Below, in pieces: positions 1 to 31,953 of a DNA stretch of 64,000 nt (positions are counted from its first letter, which is position 1; every line of letters begins with the position of its first letter). Origin of the DNA: a virus; IMG/VR virus record IMGVR_UViG_3300043256_000135, positions 1-64,000 of that record; one strand, 5' to 3'. The notes beneath the pieces are model-generated. The model searched no databases and was not told the DNA's origin. It was given only the letters and a program-made list of their open reading frames with translations. A program made the translations under genes and the position numbers.

Positions 1-15
1 CGGTCGGGCAATTCC
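1..15 (-). promoter_or_regulatory. Truncated copy of early promoter repeat (GGAATTGCCCGACC)
   Basis: Plus strand ggtcgggcaattcc is one mismatch from the ggtcggacaattc(c) element at 614, 1257, 1927 and 3058; the -10 would lie outside the window. Confidence 0.6.
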
Positions 16-22
16 AAAACTT

Positions 23-271
23 TCAGTCCGGCCGTCCGAATTCATCCATACTATCGGCCACACCGACCGCAAGATTCCGCACCCACCCCCACACGCCCCC
101 AAAGCCCCGCACCGGGCGCCACAACCCTGGACGCGCCTTCATCAACTCCCCGAGTAGCGGCGACACCAACAACACCCGGGGATACCGCCCCCAGGCCCGC
201 TTATGGTCCCCGAACCCTTCCAGGATGAAGTCCGGGAGATCATCGACCCACATGGTAACAGCTGCGCCCAT
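23..271 (-). CDS. Hypothetical protein (leaderless)
   Basis: ATG 5 nt downstream of GTGTGG-TATACT (277-288); ORF MGAAVTMWVDDLPDF... Confidence 0.6.
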   Translation of the reverse strand: MGAAVTMWVDDLPDFILEGFGDHKRAWGRYPRVLLVSPLLGELMKARPGLWRPVRGFGGVWGWVRNLAVGVADSMDEFGRPD

Positions 272-290
272 GCGCAAGTATACCACACGC

Positions 291-584
291 TCAGCGGTCC
301 AGCCCCCTTACTGCCTCGTCTCGCGTCGCCGCTTGCCGGATGATCGGGTAGCCCTGGGTTCGCGGATCCATGTCCGTGGTGTCCCACACGAACCAGGAGA
401 CCACGCCAAAGCGGGTATGGATCGGAGCGACGCGATATCGTCGCTGCCTTCCGCGGTTCGGGCCGGCCGTCAAGATGGGGCCAAAGGAGAGGGCGAAGGC
501 CGCATACTGTCCAGCCCTACTGGAATCGTTGACGTATTCCGGCGCGGGTGTGTCGAGCGGGTAAGCGCTTTGGTTTGTTTTCAT
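291..584 (-). CDS. Hypothetical protein (leaderless)
   Basis: MKTNQSAYPLDT... ATG 5 nt after TAGGAT. Confidence 0.65.
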   Translation of the reverse strand: MKTNQSAYPLDTPAPEYVNDSSRAGQYAAFALSFGPILTAGPNRGRQRRYRVAPIHTRFGVVSWFVWDTTDMDPRTQGYPIIRQAATRDEAVRGLDR

Positions 585-589
585 GCCAC

Positions 590-639
590 ATCCTACCCCA
601 CGTTTACACGTCGGGTCGGACAATTCCGAAAAAGATTCA
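590..639 (-). promoter_or_regulatory. Early promoter repeat: AATTGT-CCGACC-N18-TAGGAT-N5-ATG
   Basis: 26 bp (614-639) identical to 1257-1282; GTGTAAAC in spacer. Confidence 0.75.
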
Positions 640-841
640 GAGCGCGGCCCAATCCCCCCAGGATCTTCCCGCGGCGGAACCCAACGACTCGCAGGAACGC
701 CACACGTTCCCGCAGCGCGGCCAGCCCCTCCGGTCGGGCGTAGCTCTCCCGGTCGGACTCCCGGCCGAACACCGGTGTAACCACTAGCTCTACCCAATCG
801 CGACTCGCGGCCATATCGTAGCGTTTGTCGTTAGCGCTCAT
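593..841 (-). CDS. Hypothetical protein (MSANDK N-terminus)
   Basis: ATGA overlap with upstream gene 838..1125. Confidence 0.5.
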   Translation of the reverse strand: MSANDKRYDMAASRDWVELVVTPVFGRESDRESYARPEGLAALRERVAFLRVVGFRRGKILGGLGRALNLFRNCPTRRVNVG

Positions 842-1125
842 TCCGCCACCAACTTGCCACCATCCTGGGCCAATCCCAACAGCTCCTCGAACTCCGCACC
901 TGGGACTCGGCCACCCTCCCCGCGATCGATGGCGTTCAAGTGCTTTCCCGTTGTGGGGCCCCATTCGTTTTCTCGGACGAGAATCCGACCGTTTCCGGTT
1001 GAGAACGCCACGGGCGTTTTGTAGCTGTACCACACCCGGAAGCCATTGCCCAGGTCGAATACCAGCGCGTTCGCGGCGGTCGTGTTCGGGCAGTAGGTCG
1101 AGAAAGTAGGCAGTGAAGTGGTCAT
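838..1125 (-). CDS. Hypothetical early phage protein
   Basis: SD-like AAGGGG upstream; 95 aa, motif WYSYKTPVAF...NEWGPTTGKHLNAI typical of small phage proteins. Confidence 0.75.
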   Translation of the reverse strand: MTTSLPTFSTYCPNTTAANALVFDLGNGFRVWYSYKTPVAFSTGNGRILVRENEWGPTTGKHLNAIDRGEGGRVPGAEFEELLGLAQDGGKLVAE

Positions 1126-1135
1126 TGTGTTCCCC

Positions 1136-1228
1136 TTAGAAAAAGATGATAACGAGAACCGCGGCGGTGAAAAAGTCGCCTGGGGTTAGCCCCGCGAAGT
1201 GCGCCTTGATTCTATCGGTTACTTTCAC
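1136..1228 (-). CDS. 30-aa hydrophobic peptide (leaderless GTG)
   Basis: GTG 5 nt after TAGACT; MKVTDRIKAHFAGLTPGDFFTAAVLVIIFF. Confidence 0.45.
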   Translation of the reverse strand: MKVTDRIKAHFAGLTPGDFFTAAVLVIIFF

Positions 1229-1233
1229 GCCAG

Positions 1234-1282
1234 AGTCTACCACGTGTAAACGCCGCGGTCGGACAATTCCGAAAAAGATTCA
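1234..1282 (-). promoter_or_regulatory. Early promoter repeat: AATTGT-CCGACC-N17-TAGACT-N5-GTG
   Basis: Repeat of 590-639; GTTTACAC in spacer. Confidence 0.75.
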
Positions 1283-1609
1283 CCCCGCCAGCGCGGTCCT
1301 CGCCTCTTCGATCGTGAACGGCCCGCCACAAGGCAACAGGATCTCGCCCAGTACATCCTGCTCTTGGTCGAAATCGACCCGCACTGTCAACCGGTACGTC
1401 TCATCCCAGCGCACCTTGCGCCCAGTAATCCGGATCGCACAGTAGCTGTACACGTCGTGCCGATCCGAGTACAGTGCGTGCCGATACGGTGCGCCATCCC
1501 AGCTACGGGCGGCCTCGCTCACACCGTGAATACTCCGCGGCCATGGGTTGACGCCGGGGAAAAAGATGTTGAATCCCATCGGCGGGAAGTTCTTGTCGTT
1601 TGCGCTCAT
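1280..1609 (-). CDS. Hypothetical protein (MSANDK N-terminus)
   Basis: GGAGGGAG SD and ATGA overlap with 1606..1896. Confidence 0.65.
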   Translation of the reverse strand: MSANDKNFPPMGFNIFFPGVNPWPRSIHGVSEAARSWDGAPYRHALYSDRHDVYSYCAIRITGRKVRWDETYRLTVRVDFDQEQDVLGEILLPCGGPFTIEEARTALAG

Positions 1610-1896
1610 ACTCCCTCCCTGATCCCGTGAGTCGGGCAGCCTTGGACGTTTCCCGACAGCCCCACAAAGAGCGCTTGGCAGACTGGGCAATGTAATTCCT
1701 CTCCGCTCAGAATTACTGTACCGATTTCGGACTTGGAGAACTTGACCGCCTCGCAATCCGCGGCATACCGCATGAGTTCCTCGGCCAGCTGCCATGCCAG
1801 CGATGGGGACAAGTAGGCCGTTTCCGTACCAGAAAAGTGAACCGCTACCCATTCGTGGAATCGGTGCACCCGCGCGTTGCTTGTTTGCTTGACCAT
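1606..1896 (-). CDS. Hypothetical protein with C-terminal CxxC...CxxH (leaderless)
   Basis: ATG 6 nt after TAGGAT. Confidence 0.7.
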   Translation of the reverse strand: MVKQTSNARVHRFHEWVAVHFSGTETAYLSPSLAWQLAEELMRYAADCEAVKFSKSEIGTVILSGEELHCPVCQALFVGLSGNVQGCPTHGIREGV

Positions 1897-1902
1897 GTCA
1901 CC

Positions 1903-1939
1903 ATCCTACCCCATGTAAACGCCGGAGGTCGGACAATTC
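1903..1939 (-). promoter_or_regulatory. Early promoter repeat: GAATTGT-CCGACC-N18-TAGGAT-N6-ATG
   Basis: Same conserved element; GTTTACAT in spacer. Confidence 0.75.
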
Positions 1940-1989
1940 TGCTGGGCGGAGTCGAACCGCCGTTCGCATGGGGAGTTCACCGGCGGACA

Positions 1990-2460
1990 TTATTTCCCGC
2001 CGTCCCCGCACGTCGATTTCCCGTCAGCCCCCTCAAGTTCTGCGACGATCTGGCCGACGATCCCCGCGACTTCCTTTGCAAATCCACCCGGCCAGCGCAC
2101 TGCCGCCACCGGATCGTGAGACAGCAGCCGGGCCGCCACGGTCACGGTCAGGGTCCGTCGGAATTCGGCTGTTTCATTCTGAGGCGTCTCAATCGGAGAC
2201 AATCTCAGATTGAGGCTCGTGAGGTACTTGGCCAGTTCCTGGTGGTTCCAAGTTGGCGGCTCAGTTCCAAGTTGGCCACTTGGTTCCAAGTTGGCAGTTC
2301 CAAGTTGCGGATTCCGTTCCAAGTAGAGCCGTAGCGCGGCGATCTCGTCCCAATCCAAGGTGAGACTCTCTCCGTAACTGCTGTCGTACAGGTCCAGAGT
2401 CTTGCCCTCGACAGTGGCGGTAATTTTGGAAGTGATCTTCGTAACTTCGGTCATGGTCAT
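1990..2460 (-). CDS. Hypothetical protein carrying an internal DNA repeat array
   Basis: GAGGG SD, ATGA overlap with 2457..2906; MTMTEVTKITSK... Confidence 0.6.
   Translation of the reverse strand: MTMTEVTKITSKITATVEGKTLDLYDSSYGESLTLDWDEIAALRLYLERNPQLGTANLEPSGQLGTEPPTWNHQELAKYLTSLNLRLSPIETPQNETAEFRRTLTVTVAARLLSHDPVAAVRWPGGFAKEVAGIVGQIVAELEGADGKSTCGDGGK
2245..2326. repeat. Direct repeat array GTTCCAAGT(TGGC) x5
   Basis: Copies start at 2245, 2264, 2283, 2297 and 2316 (spacing 19, 19, 14, 19); a sixth copy at 2471. Confidence 0.9.
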
Positions 2461-2906
2461 TCCCTCATTGGTTCCAAGTTGCAGAATTCCTCGCGCCACT
2501 CGTGTAGCACGTCTTTCCCGAGATCGCTCCCCCACTCGTCTTCCAAACGATCGCACACTTCCATCATGCCCGCGCCTTCGTCACCATGGACTGTAACCCG
2601 GCCCTCCCACGGCTTGCACTTGCCGTGCAGCTCGCATAGCCCATCCTCGGTCTGGAACGTGCACGTCTGTGGGTTGTTGACGTGCCCGCAGAAAGAGTCA
2701 AAGTCCGGAGCATCCTTTCCCTCGTAACCCACGCCAGCAGCCTGGAGGTAGGAAAACGGGGAGTCCCCATCGTCCCGAATCATGAGCCGCGCGGCCACAT
2801 CATTGGGCATCTCGCGAACTTCCGAGGGCAGCGGCCGGCAGGGAAACCCCTGGCACATCGCGATGCACTTCTCGCAGCTGCACTCGAATTCTTCCAAGTC
2901 GCTCAT
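2457..2906 (-). CDS. Cys-rich metal-cluster protein (YkgJ/CxxCxxCC-like)
   Basis: CSCEKCIAMC...C-TF...C-ELH..KPWEG pattern. Confidence 0.6.
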   Translation of the reverse strand: MSDLEEFECSCEKCIAMCQGFPCRPLPSEVREMPNDVAARLMIRDDGDSPFSYLQAAGVGYEGKDAPDFDSFCGHVNNPQTCTFQTEDGLCELHGKCKPWEGRVTVHGDEGAGMMEVCDRLEDEWGSDLGKDVLHEWREEFCNLEPMRE

Positions 2907-3028
2907 CTTGATTGGTCCTCAATGCACGCATAGAGCACTCGATCGGAGCCGGGCTCCAACCACTCGATGCTCAGCACCCATCCCTCTTCGGAGCATAGCT
3001 CCCAGCTTGCATGCTCAATGTGGATCAT
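2903..3028 (-). CDS. Small hypothetical protein (leaderless)
   Basis: ATG 5 nt after TAGGAT; ATGA overlap with next gene. Confidence 0.55.
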   Translation of the reverse strand: MIHIEHASWELCSEEGWVLSIEWLEPGSDRVLYACIEDQSR

Positions 3029-3033
3029 GTCAG

Positions 3034-3070
3034 ATCCTACCACAGTTCCAAGCGCGAGGTCGGACAATTC
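3034..3070 (-). promoter_or_regulatory. Early promoter repeat: GAATTGT-CCGACC-N18-TAGGAT-N5-ATG
   Basis: Same element; spacer contains CTTGGAAC (the 2245-2326 repeat core). Confidence 0.75.
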
Positions 3071-3081
3071 TGAGAAAAACA

Positions 3082-3558
3082 TCAGCCCACCATTTCTCGC
3101 CGACGGTTTCGCCACTTCCGCCATGTGTCACAACACGCCGACGGCGCCCAGTCCTCGCCATGCTTGGCTCGCATAGTGCCCAGCCACGTGGCGTACTGGG
3201 CCTCTTCGATTGCCCGCGGCTTGGCCCGGACCATGCGGCGCCGCTTCGGTCGGGCAGGCTTTGGCTTCGGCTGCACCATGCGCTGGGCAGGCTTCGCATG
3301 GGCCTTGTTCCATTCCTTGATCACGACGTTTGCTTCGGGAGTGAACCGCTTCCGTTGTCGCCACTTCCGCCACGTGTCCGAATGCTCGGGCGGCGTCCCC
3401 ATCCAGTCCACCCAGATCCGATACATGGCCTTCCACTTCGCCCGACGGCGCAGAGCCGCCCGTTTCTCCTTGGGGCCAAGTAGATCCAGCATGCGGCTCT
3501 GGTACGCCGACCATGCCTCCCCGGGTTTGCGGTTCACATCTTCAGGTCCAAACGTCAT
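3082..3558 (-). CDS. Very basic Trp/Arg-rich hypothetical protein
   Basis: GAGG SD; internal repeat DTWRKWR x2. Confidence 0.6.
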   Translation of the reverse strand: MTFGPEDVNRKPGEAWSAYQSRMLDLLGPKEKRAALRRRAKWKAMYRIWVDWMGTPPEHSDTWRKWRQRKRFTPEANVVIKEWNKAHAKPAQRMVQPKPKPARPKRRRMVRAKPRAIEEAQYATWLGTMRAKHGEDWAPSACCDTWRKWRNRRREMVG

Positions 3559-3660
3559 GCGACTACCTCAGTACGAAAAATGGGCCCCGCCGCCCATGAA
3601 CAGCAGAGCCCTCGCAGGACCCGCACCCTGCTCCACAGAGTACGCCATCGGTCCATGCGT

Positions 3661-5176: not shown

Positions 5177-5680
5177 TTATTCAGGTCCGTCTAGGATGCG
5201 AGGATTATAGGCGTCTTCCCGTTCCTCTGCGCATCGGTCCATCTCGGCTTGCATCCTTGCGATCGTGCGGGTCAGCTCGCCGTTGGTCACGTTCACCTTC
5301 GCCAAAGCGTTGGCCCGGCCGATGACGGCCTCGCAGTCGATCTGCGAGGTGCCCATTGCACACGCTAGCCGGCGCAGCAGTACGGCGTCCACGTCCAACG
5401 ATCCGGCCAGGGCGTCGCGGATGGCGAGGTACTTGTCGGCCTGCGCGCGAATAACACGGAGACGTGCGAGAGCCTCGGTCTCGCACATGGGCCGAGTCTC
5501 TCCGCCCATCGTTTCATGCAGGCATCCGACGAACTTGAACATCTCCAAATCCTTCTGCTCTAGGGCCAGTGCGGCCACTTCGACCTGGATCTGGAACTCG
5601 GCGAGGCGATTGCTCAGCGCATCGCGCTGAGCGATGGCGGTTGCACGCTCGCGCCATAGTCGGATAGTCTTGCGGATCAT
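5177..5680 (-). CDS. Coiled-coil hypothetical protein
   Basis: Heptad-rich ORF; TGTGG-TATACT at 5732-5742 upstream. Confidence 0.6.
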   Translation of the reverse strand: MIRKTIRLWRERATAIAQRDALSNRLAEFQIQVEVAALALEQKDLEMFKFVGCLHETMGGETRPMCETEALARLRVIRAQADKYLAIRDALAGSLDVDAVLLRRLACAMGTSQIDCEAVIGRANALAKVNVTNGELTRTIARMQAEMDRCAEEREDAYNPRILDGPE

Positions 5681-6159
5681 GTTTTCTTCCACGCGGCTTT
5701 GCGCCGTTCGAGTTCCTTGTCGGTCTGATTCAGTATACCACAGAGATCGGCGTCCGGCGCAACATGCGCCACGGCTCCGATGGCGGCCACGCGCGTGCCG
5801 TCCGCTAGGACGTTTACACCCACCACAGCCTCGATCCTGTTGCGAACTTTTGTGCCATCACTACACCACGGCAGCACCACGGCGAACTCATCCCCGCCGT
5901 GCCGGTAGACCGTGTCCCACCCACCACTGCGGATAGCAACGCCGACGCGGTACAGCAGCTTGTCGGCGCCGAAGTGACCCAGCACCTCATTGGCCCGCTT
6001 CAGGTTCGTCATGTCGAGCAGCACCACACCGAACGTAATGCCCATGGCCTGGAGCAGCCGACAGTAGTCCATGAACGCGCGCCGGTTGCCCAGGCCCGTC
6101 AGGTCGTCTGTCCGGGCGTCTGTCATCAGACGCACGGCTAGTTGTTCCAGGTCGTTCAT
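5677..6159 (-). CDS. Stand-alone GGDEF-domain diguanylate cyclase
   Basis: DxLTGLxNRR, D..NLKRAN..LGH, RHGGDEFAV motifs. Confidence 0.92.
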   Translation of the reverse strand: MNDLEQLAVRLMTDARTDDLTGLGNRRAFMDYCRLLQAMGITFGVVLLDMTNLKRANEVLGHFGADKLLYRVGVAIRSGGWDTVYRHGGDEFAVVLPWCSDGTKVRNRIEAVVGVNVLADGTRVAAIGAVAHVAPDADLCGILNQTDKELERRKAAWKKT

Positions 6160-31350: not shown

Positions 31351-31953
31351 TTAGGCGCCCGGCCGTTCAGCGCCATGGTCTCTAAGTATAGCACTCTCGG
31401 CGAGGATTGCACGTAGTTTTTCTTCCCCCGAGTTTTGAATCTGACGAACACGCTCTGGGGTGACAGCGAGAATGTCGCCTACCTGTCGCAGCGTCATAGG
31501 CAGAGTGTTTACACCTCTGCGCATGCGGATCACCATCGCCTCGCGACTTGGCAACAGCTTGATGCCGTCGCGCACGGCATCAACCATCTCAGCTTCATCC
31601 AGTACTTCCGACACGTCGGGCGCCGAGTCCGCGAGGTCGTAGGCGGTCTCCAGCGAACCACAGATGAGGGAAGGCCGCCGCCGCGGCGTTCGCACGATCT
31701 CATTCCTGGTGTGAATGGCGTCCATGATTATCTTCAAGATGTGCCAGCGGGCGTAGGTCGAAAACTTCGTGCCTCGCGCAGGGTCATACAGCTCGGCCGC
31801 GTCTATCAAACCGAGGTAGGCTTCCTGCACCAGATCCTTGTATTCCATTCGACTGGCCTGGAAATGATTGGCGAAGTGCGTCGCAAGACCCATGTTGGCA
31901 AGTACGAGTTCATTGCGCTTCTTCTGTAGGGGGGTCAGCTTTCTCTTTTTCAT
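31351..31953 (-). CDS. Sigma-70 family RNA polymerase sigma factor
   Basis: Region 2 DLVQEAYLGLIDAAELYDP.RG.KFSTYA; region 4 TLRQVG..L.VTPERVRQI. Confidence 0.93.
   Translation of the reverse strand: MKKRKLTPLQKKRNELVLANMGLATHFANHFQASRMEYKDLVQEAYLGLIDAAELYDPARGTKFSTYARWHILKIIMDAIHTRNEIVRTPRRRPSLICGSLETAYDLADSAPDVSEVLDEAEMVDAVRDGIKLLPSREAMVIRMRRGVNTLPMTLRQVGDILAVTPERVRQIQNSGEEKLRAILAESAILRDHGAERPGA

Follow-up and report, generated by a model that had tools for sequence, protein, structure and literature searches.

Relation to described promoter-bounded gene arrays

In T4-type phages, repeated elements called PeSLs (promoter early stem-loops) combine a promoter with a stem-loop terminator and a ribosome site, and their recombination, with formation of mini-circles, has been demonstrated (Arbiol et al. 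2010, PMC2839356; Comeau et al. 2014, PMC4122927). Here we describe an array of small genes at the start of a 64,000-nucleotide stretch (the window) of virus record IMGVR_UViG_3300043256_000135 from IMG/VR, in which successive groups of genes stand behind copies of a promoter-like module containing a 13-nucleotide (nt) box. The full record measures 76,449 bp, of which the window covers the initial 64 kb. Because the two ends of the record share an overlap of 127 bp, it represents a circular assembly of 76,322 bp; positions outside the window are given as genome positions. The phage is uncultured and comes from marine sediment. Its array resembles PeSLs in that a repeated strong sigma-70-like promoter directly precedes small genes without known relatives (ORFans) clustered in an accessory region, in that the AT-rich upstream tract holds the stop codon of the preceding gene, and in that shared boundaries surround unrelated cargo. 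It differs in having neither stem-loop nor terminator, and its start codons follow the -10 hexamer by 5-6 nt, so that the units would be leaderless and lack the Shine-Dalgarno site that PeSLs have. Moreover, PeSLs are present in about 50 copies across a T4-type genome, whereas the 6-7 copies described here belong to one array in a 76-kb siphovirus of 60% G+C.

In Cluster O mycobacteriophages, long gene runs are split into operons by predicted leaderless SigA-like promoters (Cresawn et al. 2015, PMC4351075). Those promoters likewise have host-type -10 (e.g. TAGAAT) and -35 hexamers and are predicted to begin transcription on the first base of the start codon, with several promoters in one unidirectional run of small genes. 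However, they are distributed genome-wide and are not near-identical paralogs, whereas the copies studied here are stacked every 0.6-1.1 kb. In halovirus HF2, intergenic repeats act as promoters and their positions are strongly conserved in the genus (Russ et al. 2021, PMC8707807). HF2 shares with the present phage repeated intergenic sequences of tens of bases which promote successive gene groups, but it is an archaeal virus with promoters of archaeal type; because its repeat positions are conserved, it is the model for an array whose genes are not shuffled.

Morons of lambdoid phages, which Juhala et al. are said to have described in 2000, are reportedly autonomous units of a promoter and an accessory gene. 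The units studied here are also promoter-plus-gene accessory units, and a diverged copy of the module lies between the terminase and portal genes, a classic moron position. Morons, however, carry their own terminator, are mutually unrelated and are inserted singly, whereas the present modules are homologous and in tandem. The array does not classify as a set of morons: it has no terminators, and only the copy at genome position 70,237 sits between conserved genes. Stoperators of the mycobacteriophage L5 type are 13-bp asymmetric sites which occur in large numbers outside promoters and have a cognate repressor; this reading was dismissed since every box copy lies in a full promoter and neither a repressor nor an integrase was found among the proteins scanned. 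An integron cassette array was rejected too, as the unit ends have no inverted repeats and the modules scanned contain no integrase.

A repeated promoter-like module heads six tandem units

On the minus strand the array begins at position 3070, crosses the circular junction and ends at genome position 73,939. It comprises six tandem units of two to four genes, each of which is probably transcribed from its own homologous promoter of host type (AT-rich tract, -35 CCGACC and extended -10) with a leaderless start. The window contains the 13-nt box, GAATTGTCCGACC, four times without mismatch. These copies are all minus-strand and fall between 614 and 3070, with their first bases at 626, 1269, 1939 and 3070; the box did not occur in 100 dinucleotide-preserving shuffles. 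The full pattern box-N17/18-TAGRMT-N5/6-RTG gave four matches in the window against zero expected. The layout common to the copies is the box, 17-18 nt, TGG-TAG(G/A)(A/C)T, 5-6 nt, and ATG or GTG. A fifth copy of the box at 2-14 has one mismatch. Beyond the window, diverged copies occur at two genome positions, 75,543 (GAATTACTCGACC, with a ten-T run ahead) and 70,237 (GAATTTGTCCGACT, with the -10 TATGAT). The promoters with coordinates in the window are the following:

3029-3083, minus strand: promoter P1, with T-run; box 3058-3070; -10 TAGGAT 3034-3039; start codon of g1a 3026-3028; CTTGGAAC in the spacer
1897-1941, minus strand: promoter P2, without T-run; box 1927-1939; -10 TAGGAT 1903-1908; start codon 1894-1896
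1229-1282, minus strand: promoter P3, with T-run; box 1257-1269; -10 TAGACT 1234-1239; GTG start 1226-1228
585-639, minus strand: promoter P4, with T-run; box 614-626; -10 TAGGAT 590-595; start codon 582-584
2-14 (14 being genome position 76,336), minus strand: box of promoter P5, GAATTGCCCGACC; -10 at 76,300-76,305 and start codon at 76,291-76,293, past the circular junction

The first-pass annotation of this DNA, made from the letters of the window, had reported a promoter element recurring at four sites, which agrees with the four exact boxes and the four full-pattern matches. It had regarded a copy at 1-15 as truncated; this copy is in fact the complete promoter P5, in which the box is followed across the junction by the spacer, TAGGAT, six bases and then ATG at 76,293. 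Extended leftward across the junction, the sequence completed P5 and added P6 (75,543); the copy at 70,237 lies elsewhere.

The module measures about 50-70 nt and consists of an AT-rich tract or T-run, GAATTGT plus CCGACC, a 17-18-nt spacer, a TGG-extended -10, 5-6 nt and the start codon. A T-run or AT tract is found upstream of the box in five of the six copies. In four of them the preceding gene stops 8-17 nt ahead of the box, and in one it stops inside the promoter. The modules have no stem-loop in common, each copy folding differently (fold z-scores +0.6 to -3.3), and an Rfam scan of the array gave no match. A T-arm-like hairpin, GGCGGTTCGACTCCGCC, plus CAGCA adjoins the P2 box (1941-1957; region 1941-1985, minus strand); it has neither Rfam nor ARAGORN support and is not a detectable tRNA, and may be the remnant of a tRNA cassette.

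Downstream of the promoters the genes are arranged as follows:

1990-3028, minus strand: unit 1 (P1), three genes: g1a (2903-3028, 41 amino acids (aa), predicted leaderless), g1b (2457-2906, 149 aa, Cys-rich) and g1c (1990-2460, 156 aa, small family)
1280-1896, minus strand: unit 2 (P2), two genes: g2a (1606-1896, 96 aa, predicted leaderless) and g2b (1280-1609, 109 aa, MSANDK start, ATGA overlap with g2a)
593-1228, minus strand: unit 3 (P3), three genes: g3a (1136-1228, 30 aa, hydrophobic tail, predicted leaderless), g3b (838-1125, 95 aa) and g3c (593-841, 82 aa)
23-584, minus strand: unit 4 (P4), two genes: g4a (291-584, 97 aa, predicted leaderless) and g4b (23-271, 82 aa)
across the circular junction, minus strand: unit 5 (P5, box at 14 = 76,336), four genes
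ending at genome position 73,939, minus strand: unit 6 (P6, box at 75,543), three genes plus parB

The number of genes per unit, two to four, departs from the one to three open reading frames (ORFs) per copy given in the first-pass annotation. Gene g3c has an MSANDK start, and its reading frame crosses P4 to a stop inside the P4 -10; g4b is preceded by an extended -10 of its own without a box (TGTGG-TATACT, hexamer at 277-282, 5 nt ahead of the ATG). For all 18 array ORFs the annotated frame was the best of six, with G+C at third codon positions exceeding that at second positions, and all-against-all BLASTP of these 18 ORFs found no paralogs among the array proteins. Base composition of the units (58-64% G+C vs 60% in the genome) carries no foreign signature. 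Internal genes are preceded by GAGGA, GGAGG or AGGGGA or begin in ATGA/GTGA stop/start overlaps, and the first genes leave no room for a Shine-Dalgarno site. No terminator-like sites were found between units.

Probable promoter architecture and predicted leaderless start

In the six copies the box ends in CCGACC, which a spacing of 17-18 nt separates from a TGG-preceded TAnnnT hexamer, and this CCGACC-N17/18-TGG-TAGGAT arrangement is sequence-level evidence of a sigma-70-like promoter. The -10 is placed for a +1 at the start codon, without a Shine-Dalgarno site, in six of six copies. The same TGG-TAnnnT-N5 arrangement is present in front of the tRNA-His gene and of other genes lacking the box; as a tRNA needs no ribosome site, reading the hexamer as one is excluded there. 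In P3 the hexamer TAGACT keeps TAnnnT and loses the AGGA core, which makes a -10 the more likely reading, and related sites elsewhere in the genome have TATACT, TAGAAT and TATGAT, so that the hexamer varies as a -10 would. Further upstream, GAATTGT and the T-run are rich in A and T over roughly -36 to -51, against 60% G+C in the genome; established promoter architecture would place an UP-like element there.

Transcription by host RNA polymerase with its main sigma factor would most likely start at, or at most one base from, the A or G of the start codon. With such a start, the first gene of a unit would be translated from a leaderless mRNA, and the later genes would be translated via Shine-Dalgarno sites or ATGA/GTGA overlaps. 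As terminators are lacking between units, transcription from upstream promoters would add to that of downstream units, and a single strong terminator at 3580-3611 would insulate the block.

Several observations weigh against this reading: the AGGA in TAGGAT has a spacing compatible with a Shine-Dalgarno site, the -35 agrees with TTGACA at GAC only, the phage encodes a sigma factor of its own, and its terminase is nearest to those of Proteobacteria phages, with homologs of several cargo genes mostly in actinophages. On the first of these, TAGGAT might be the Shine-Dalgarno site rather than a -10, and the box an RNA element, attenuator or recombination site on a long polycistronic transcript; AGGA is found 6-7 nt ahead of the start codon in five of six copies, and no terminators separate the units. 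We consider this explanation very improbable in view of the hexamers TAGACT (P3), TATACT, TAGAAT and TATGAT, the position of one related site in front of a tRNA gene, the TGG extension combined with a -35-like hexamer at 17-18 nt, and the lack of a conserved RNA structure or Rfam match. At its suitable spacing, TAGGAT could nevertheless double as a ribosome site on read-through transcripts. A different explanation is that the box is the site of a phage-encoded factor, i.e. the -35 for the phage sigma factor or the operator of an activator or repressor, in which case the units would form a co-regulated, possibly middle-phase regulon instead of having constitutive early promoters. Thirteen nucleotides are invariant in four copies, yet only GAC fits the sigma-70 -35 consensus, so that contact with RNA polymerase alone does not explain the perfect conservation of GAATTGTCC. 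A sigma factor of 200 aa is encoded at window positions 31351-31953, minus strand (phrog_351, E 3e-36). Leaderless promoters elsewhere in the genome have the -10 and YYGACC in common with the array but lack GAATTGT, which a genome scan found to be specific to the array promoter family. At an operator-like position, the P1 spacer contains the core of a different repeat, of which unit 1 has six further copies. We judge this explanation unlikely, because each box copy belongs to a complete promoter and none is solitary, the TGG-extended -10 is of the housekeeping type, the AT-rich stretch is compatible with an UP-element-like reading, and neither repressor nor integrase turned up in the protein scan. 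A promoter of the extracytoplasmic function (ECF) type was rejected, since the spacing of 13-15 nt from GGAAT to a GTT-type -10, as read from the sequence, is too short. In view of the GAC-only fit, the phage sigma factor and the repeat in P1, binding of a regulator at a site that overlaps with the -35 is a live rival or else an extra function of the box. The promoter reading as such is likely. Real and of ordinary size, this siphoviral array of repeated leaderless promoters is a variant of a kind already known.

The different repeat of unit 1, GTTCCAAGTTG, is found five times in g1c at 14-19-bp spacing and once at the g1b/g1c junction (window positions 2243-2326 and 2468-2481). Its core, which reads CTTGGAAC on the minus strand, is also found at 3047-3054, in the P1 spacer between -35 and -10. 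These repeats are a possible operator set for unit 1.

Shared boundaries and the question of gene shuffling

At the upstream end of P4 and P3, the segments 614-639 and 1257-1282 are identical over 26 bp and similar over about ten further nt. In addition, the two genes with an MSANDK start, g2b (1609 to 1280) and g3c (841 to 593), share 17 of the first 18 nt and about 9 nt of the ribosome-binding region. Beyond the surroundings of the start codon (about 27 nt) and a stretch of some 40 nt ahead of the next box, g2b and g3c could not be aligned by BLASTP or, in any frame, by tblastx. Both the 26 identical bp and the common MSANDK start followed by complete divergence in consecutive units had been pointed out in the first-pass annotation and are upheld here. 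Its interpretation of the locus as a shuffled promoter array fares unevenly: the promoter part is supported by the -35/-10 geometry, the fixed start spacing, the AT tract and the tRNA-His gene, and the shuffling part finds indirect support.

Paralogous modules and shared start segments provide 25-55 nt of identity at which cargo genes may have been duplicated and replaced. Such shuffling at the repeats is plausible from the sequence, with a chance that we place somewhat below even. The following observations speak for modular evolution: (i) units 2 and 3 share boundaries around unrelated interiors; (ii) the paralogous genes parA and parB bracket the array; (iii) the diverged module heads an insertion between terminase and portal genes; (iv) homologs of array genes are patchily distributed among relatives, with 46-79% protein identity; (v) distant phages bearing a homolog of g6b, the largest gene of the array, have repeated promoter arrays of their own. 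The distribution in relatives is given below as percent identity to the protein of this phage, where none denotes no match at E ≤ 0.01 (g5c, g4a) or ≤ 0.001 (g6b, g1c) on a contig with that source and length:

JGI contig, 11,025 bp: g1c-like 46%; g4a-like none; g5c-like 73%; g6b-like 71%
JGI contig, 4,916 bp: g1c-like none; g4a-like none; g5c-like 78%; g6b-like 70%
NCBI contig, 20,569 bp: g1c-like unclear (the library holds one representative per 50%-identity cluster and cannot show absence); g4a-like none; g5c-like none; g6b-like 66-68%
Logan contig, 3,879 bp: g1c-like none; g4a-like 77%; g5c-like 75%; g6b-like none

Shuffling is opposed by several results. When the promoter copies were tested for mosaicism, the result was not significant, with uncorrected Fisher p values of 0.23, 0.17 and 0.008. 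The array parts g4a-g5c and g5c-g6b are syntenic in relatives, where the placing of proteins on one relative contig follows from matching size and source and was not seen directly. The spacers between box and -10 are not homogenised. Finally, among public runs this DNA was found in no RNA run and only in the source run, as assembled contigs, one of them bridging; these show one clean contig at about 104x depth with no variants, joints or circles, which is not proof of their absence. The repeats might be working promoters that are relics of an old tandem duplication, with positions and genes stable in the lineage and recombination having no special part in gene flux. Relatives have g4a together with g5c, and g5c together with g6b, at 70-79% identity, the spacers are 50-80% alike, hence not recently homogenised, and the mosaic test and the conserved positions of the HF2 repeats point the same way. 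This explanation has to contend with the unrelated interiors between shared boundaries, with homologs of g4a, g5c and g1c that are patchily absent from the longer contigs of relatives, and with an identity that is unequal between units (46% vs 71-73%) on what is apparently one contig; we regard it as possible, at a chance well short of even. A more far-reaching version of the shuffling reading, which we put forward tentatively and think rather unlikely, is that the promoter module and the shared start segment (ribosome site plus MSANDK) serve as reusable expression slots, among which unrelated genes are exchanged by homologous recombination between co-infecting relatives. TAGGAT would then double as a Shine-Dalgarno site, the first genes would be translated both from their own leaderless message and from upstream read-through messages, and the array would correspond to PeSLs in a siphoviral, leaderless form devoid of terminators. 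The label hypervariable, which the first-pass annotation had attached to this region, does not suit the unit of g6b: this largest gene encodes a conserved protein with an OB fold, and its unit is shared with relatives.

If the reading of the array given here holds, promoter-bounded cassettes would not be peculiar to T4-type myoviruses and would represent a general way in which tailed phages express and exchange small accessory genes, in a form that is here leaderless and terminator-free. The six near-identical natural promoters with different spacers also offer a compact set for testing elements of leaderless expression in a G+C-rich host, and the approximately 18 small proteins, likely made in a burst, are putative candidates for host-interaction functions. 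The practical value is limited.

Repeated signals in distant phages

In IMG/VR, the box-plus-TAG pattern matched at 26 loci, always once and never in multiple copies, which is consistent with chance, and the box-plus-TAGGAT pattern had no match in JGI metagenomes. Among terminase-based relatives, the best of which has 46% identity (contig L034), none contains the box. Protein-guided searches found distant loci and no close relatives, both in viral contigs (with g6b, parA and g5c) and in genome contigs, and in metagenome contigs identity was at most 42% among the matches listed.

Several loci with a distant g6b homolog have repeated regulatory modules of their own in front of small genes. In contig L059 (120-5470), nine units stand behind a near-identical module of about 95 nt (promoter, leader, AAGGAGA) followed by ATGACC; the module extends into the first 2-4 codons (MTTN...), and one of the units is the g6b homolog itself. 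The g6b-homolog locus L046 contains four copies of GTGTTGACACGG-N17-TAGGGT, with GTGTTGACACGG in the position of TTGACA. In L034 (150-5490), the closest terminase relative, about ten small genes that lie ahead of the terminase gene are each preceded by CAACGGAGAAGAGCGATG and share their first codons (MLS.., MQ.NEE); the signal repeated there is one for the start of translation and not a promoter. Small-gene arrays behind lineage-specific repeated signals that reach into the first codons are thus common around the g6b family, which fits the modular view and is no proof of exchange.

Predicted cargo proteins

Most cargo products are ORFans and small accessory proteins. Searches against Pfam, PHROGs and NCBIfam assigned no function to them, the only matches being phrog_5643 for g3b and, weakly, phrog_19147 for g1b. 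Homologs of g3b occur in phages of Microbacterium, Curtobacterium, Pelagibacter and Prochlorococcus, and g1c has a handful of relatives with 41-46% identity. In a language-model search, g1b resembled cysteine-cluster proteins of the YkgJ/CxxCxxCC type (score 0.95), which serves as a lead only, and g2b had no look-alike. As read from the sequence, g3a and g5a encode tiny hydrophobic peptides.

Gene g6b (genome positions 74,468-75,343, minus strand) belongs to a conserved and widespread phage family; with tblastn it matched 164 cultured-phage records, nearly all of actinophages. Its product has CxxC...CxC at the N-terminus and ends in SDRDxHFGFFKRPTK. In the structural model (pLDDT 82), an N-terminal part with four cysteines, read as a putative zinc ribbon, is combined with long helices and, at the C-terminus, an OB fold with weak resemblance to SSB and RPA domains (Foldseek E about 1e-3).

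Array flanks, outlying module and genome layout

The upstream flank of the array contains two features:

3082-3558, minus strand: parA, flanking gene, 158 aa, with the motif DTWRKWR(N/Q)R twice
3580-3611, minus strand: strong terminator-like hairpin of 13 pairs plus T-run, putatively insulating parA and the array from the genes upstream

At the other end the array is closed by parB (genome positions 73,939-74,229), which is followed by a 0.5-kb non-coding stretch and then by the small terminase gene. ParA and ParB are paralogs with 39% identity over 96 residues (E 4e-13), and both end in DTWRKWRNRR. The 23 nt encoding DTWRKWRN are identical at 22 of 23 positions between parA and parB despite the 39% overall protein identity, and both proteins are basic.

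The diverged module at genome position 70,237, between terminase and portal genes, heads a tRNA-like element and three small genes, two of which are paralogs. The tRNA-like element is degenerate and lies directly behind the diverged promoter (genome positions 70,135-70,213, minus strand), with the T-arm GGGGGTTCGATTCCCCC and the anticodon loop CTTGCAA. It scored 23 bits (E 0.42) with the Rfam tRNA-Sec model and was negative in ARAGORN.

Nearly all genes of the phage are on the minus strand. Their order there is small and large terminase, portal, head, tape measure and tail genes; then genes for helicases, DNA polymerase, a primase-like protein, methylases, nucleotide metabolism and the sigma factor; and finally a long run of small genes ending in the array, after which the circle closes just upstream of the terminase genes. 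The tape measure, minor tail and head morphogenesis genes are modules of siphovirus type, and the phage does not classify as a T4-type myovirus. Its terminase has at most 44% identity to those of cultured phages, the nearest being siphophages of Shewanella, Rhizobium and Erythrobacter. One of the small genes ahead of the array, at window positions 5677-6159, minus strand, encodes a stand-alone GGDEF protein of 160 aa (Pfam PF00990, E 2e-16). The non-coding stretch between parB and the small terminase gene (genome positions 73,443-73,939) is rich in GTAC/TGTACAC palindromes. Two TAGGCT-N5-TTG sites face each other in it, and 29 nt are directly repeated (93%); the stretch could serve for packaging, as an origin or in regulation.

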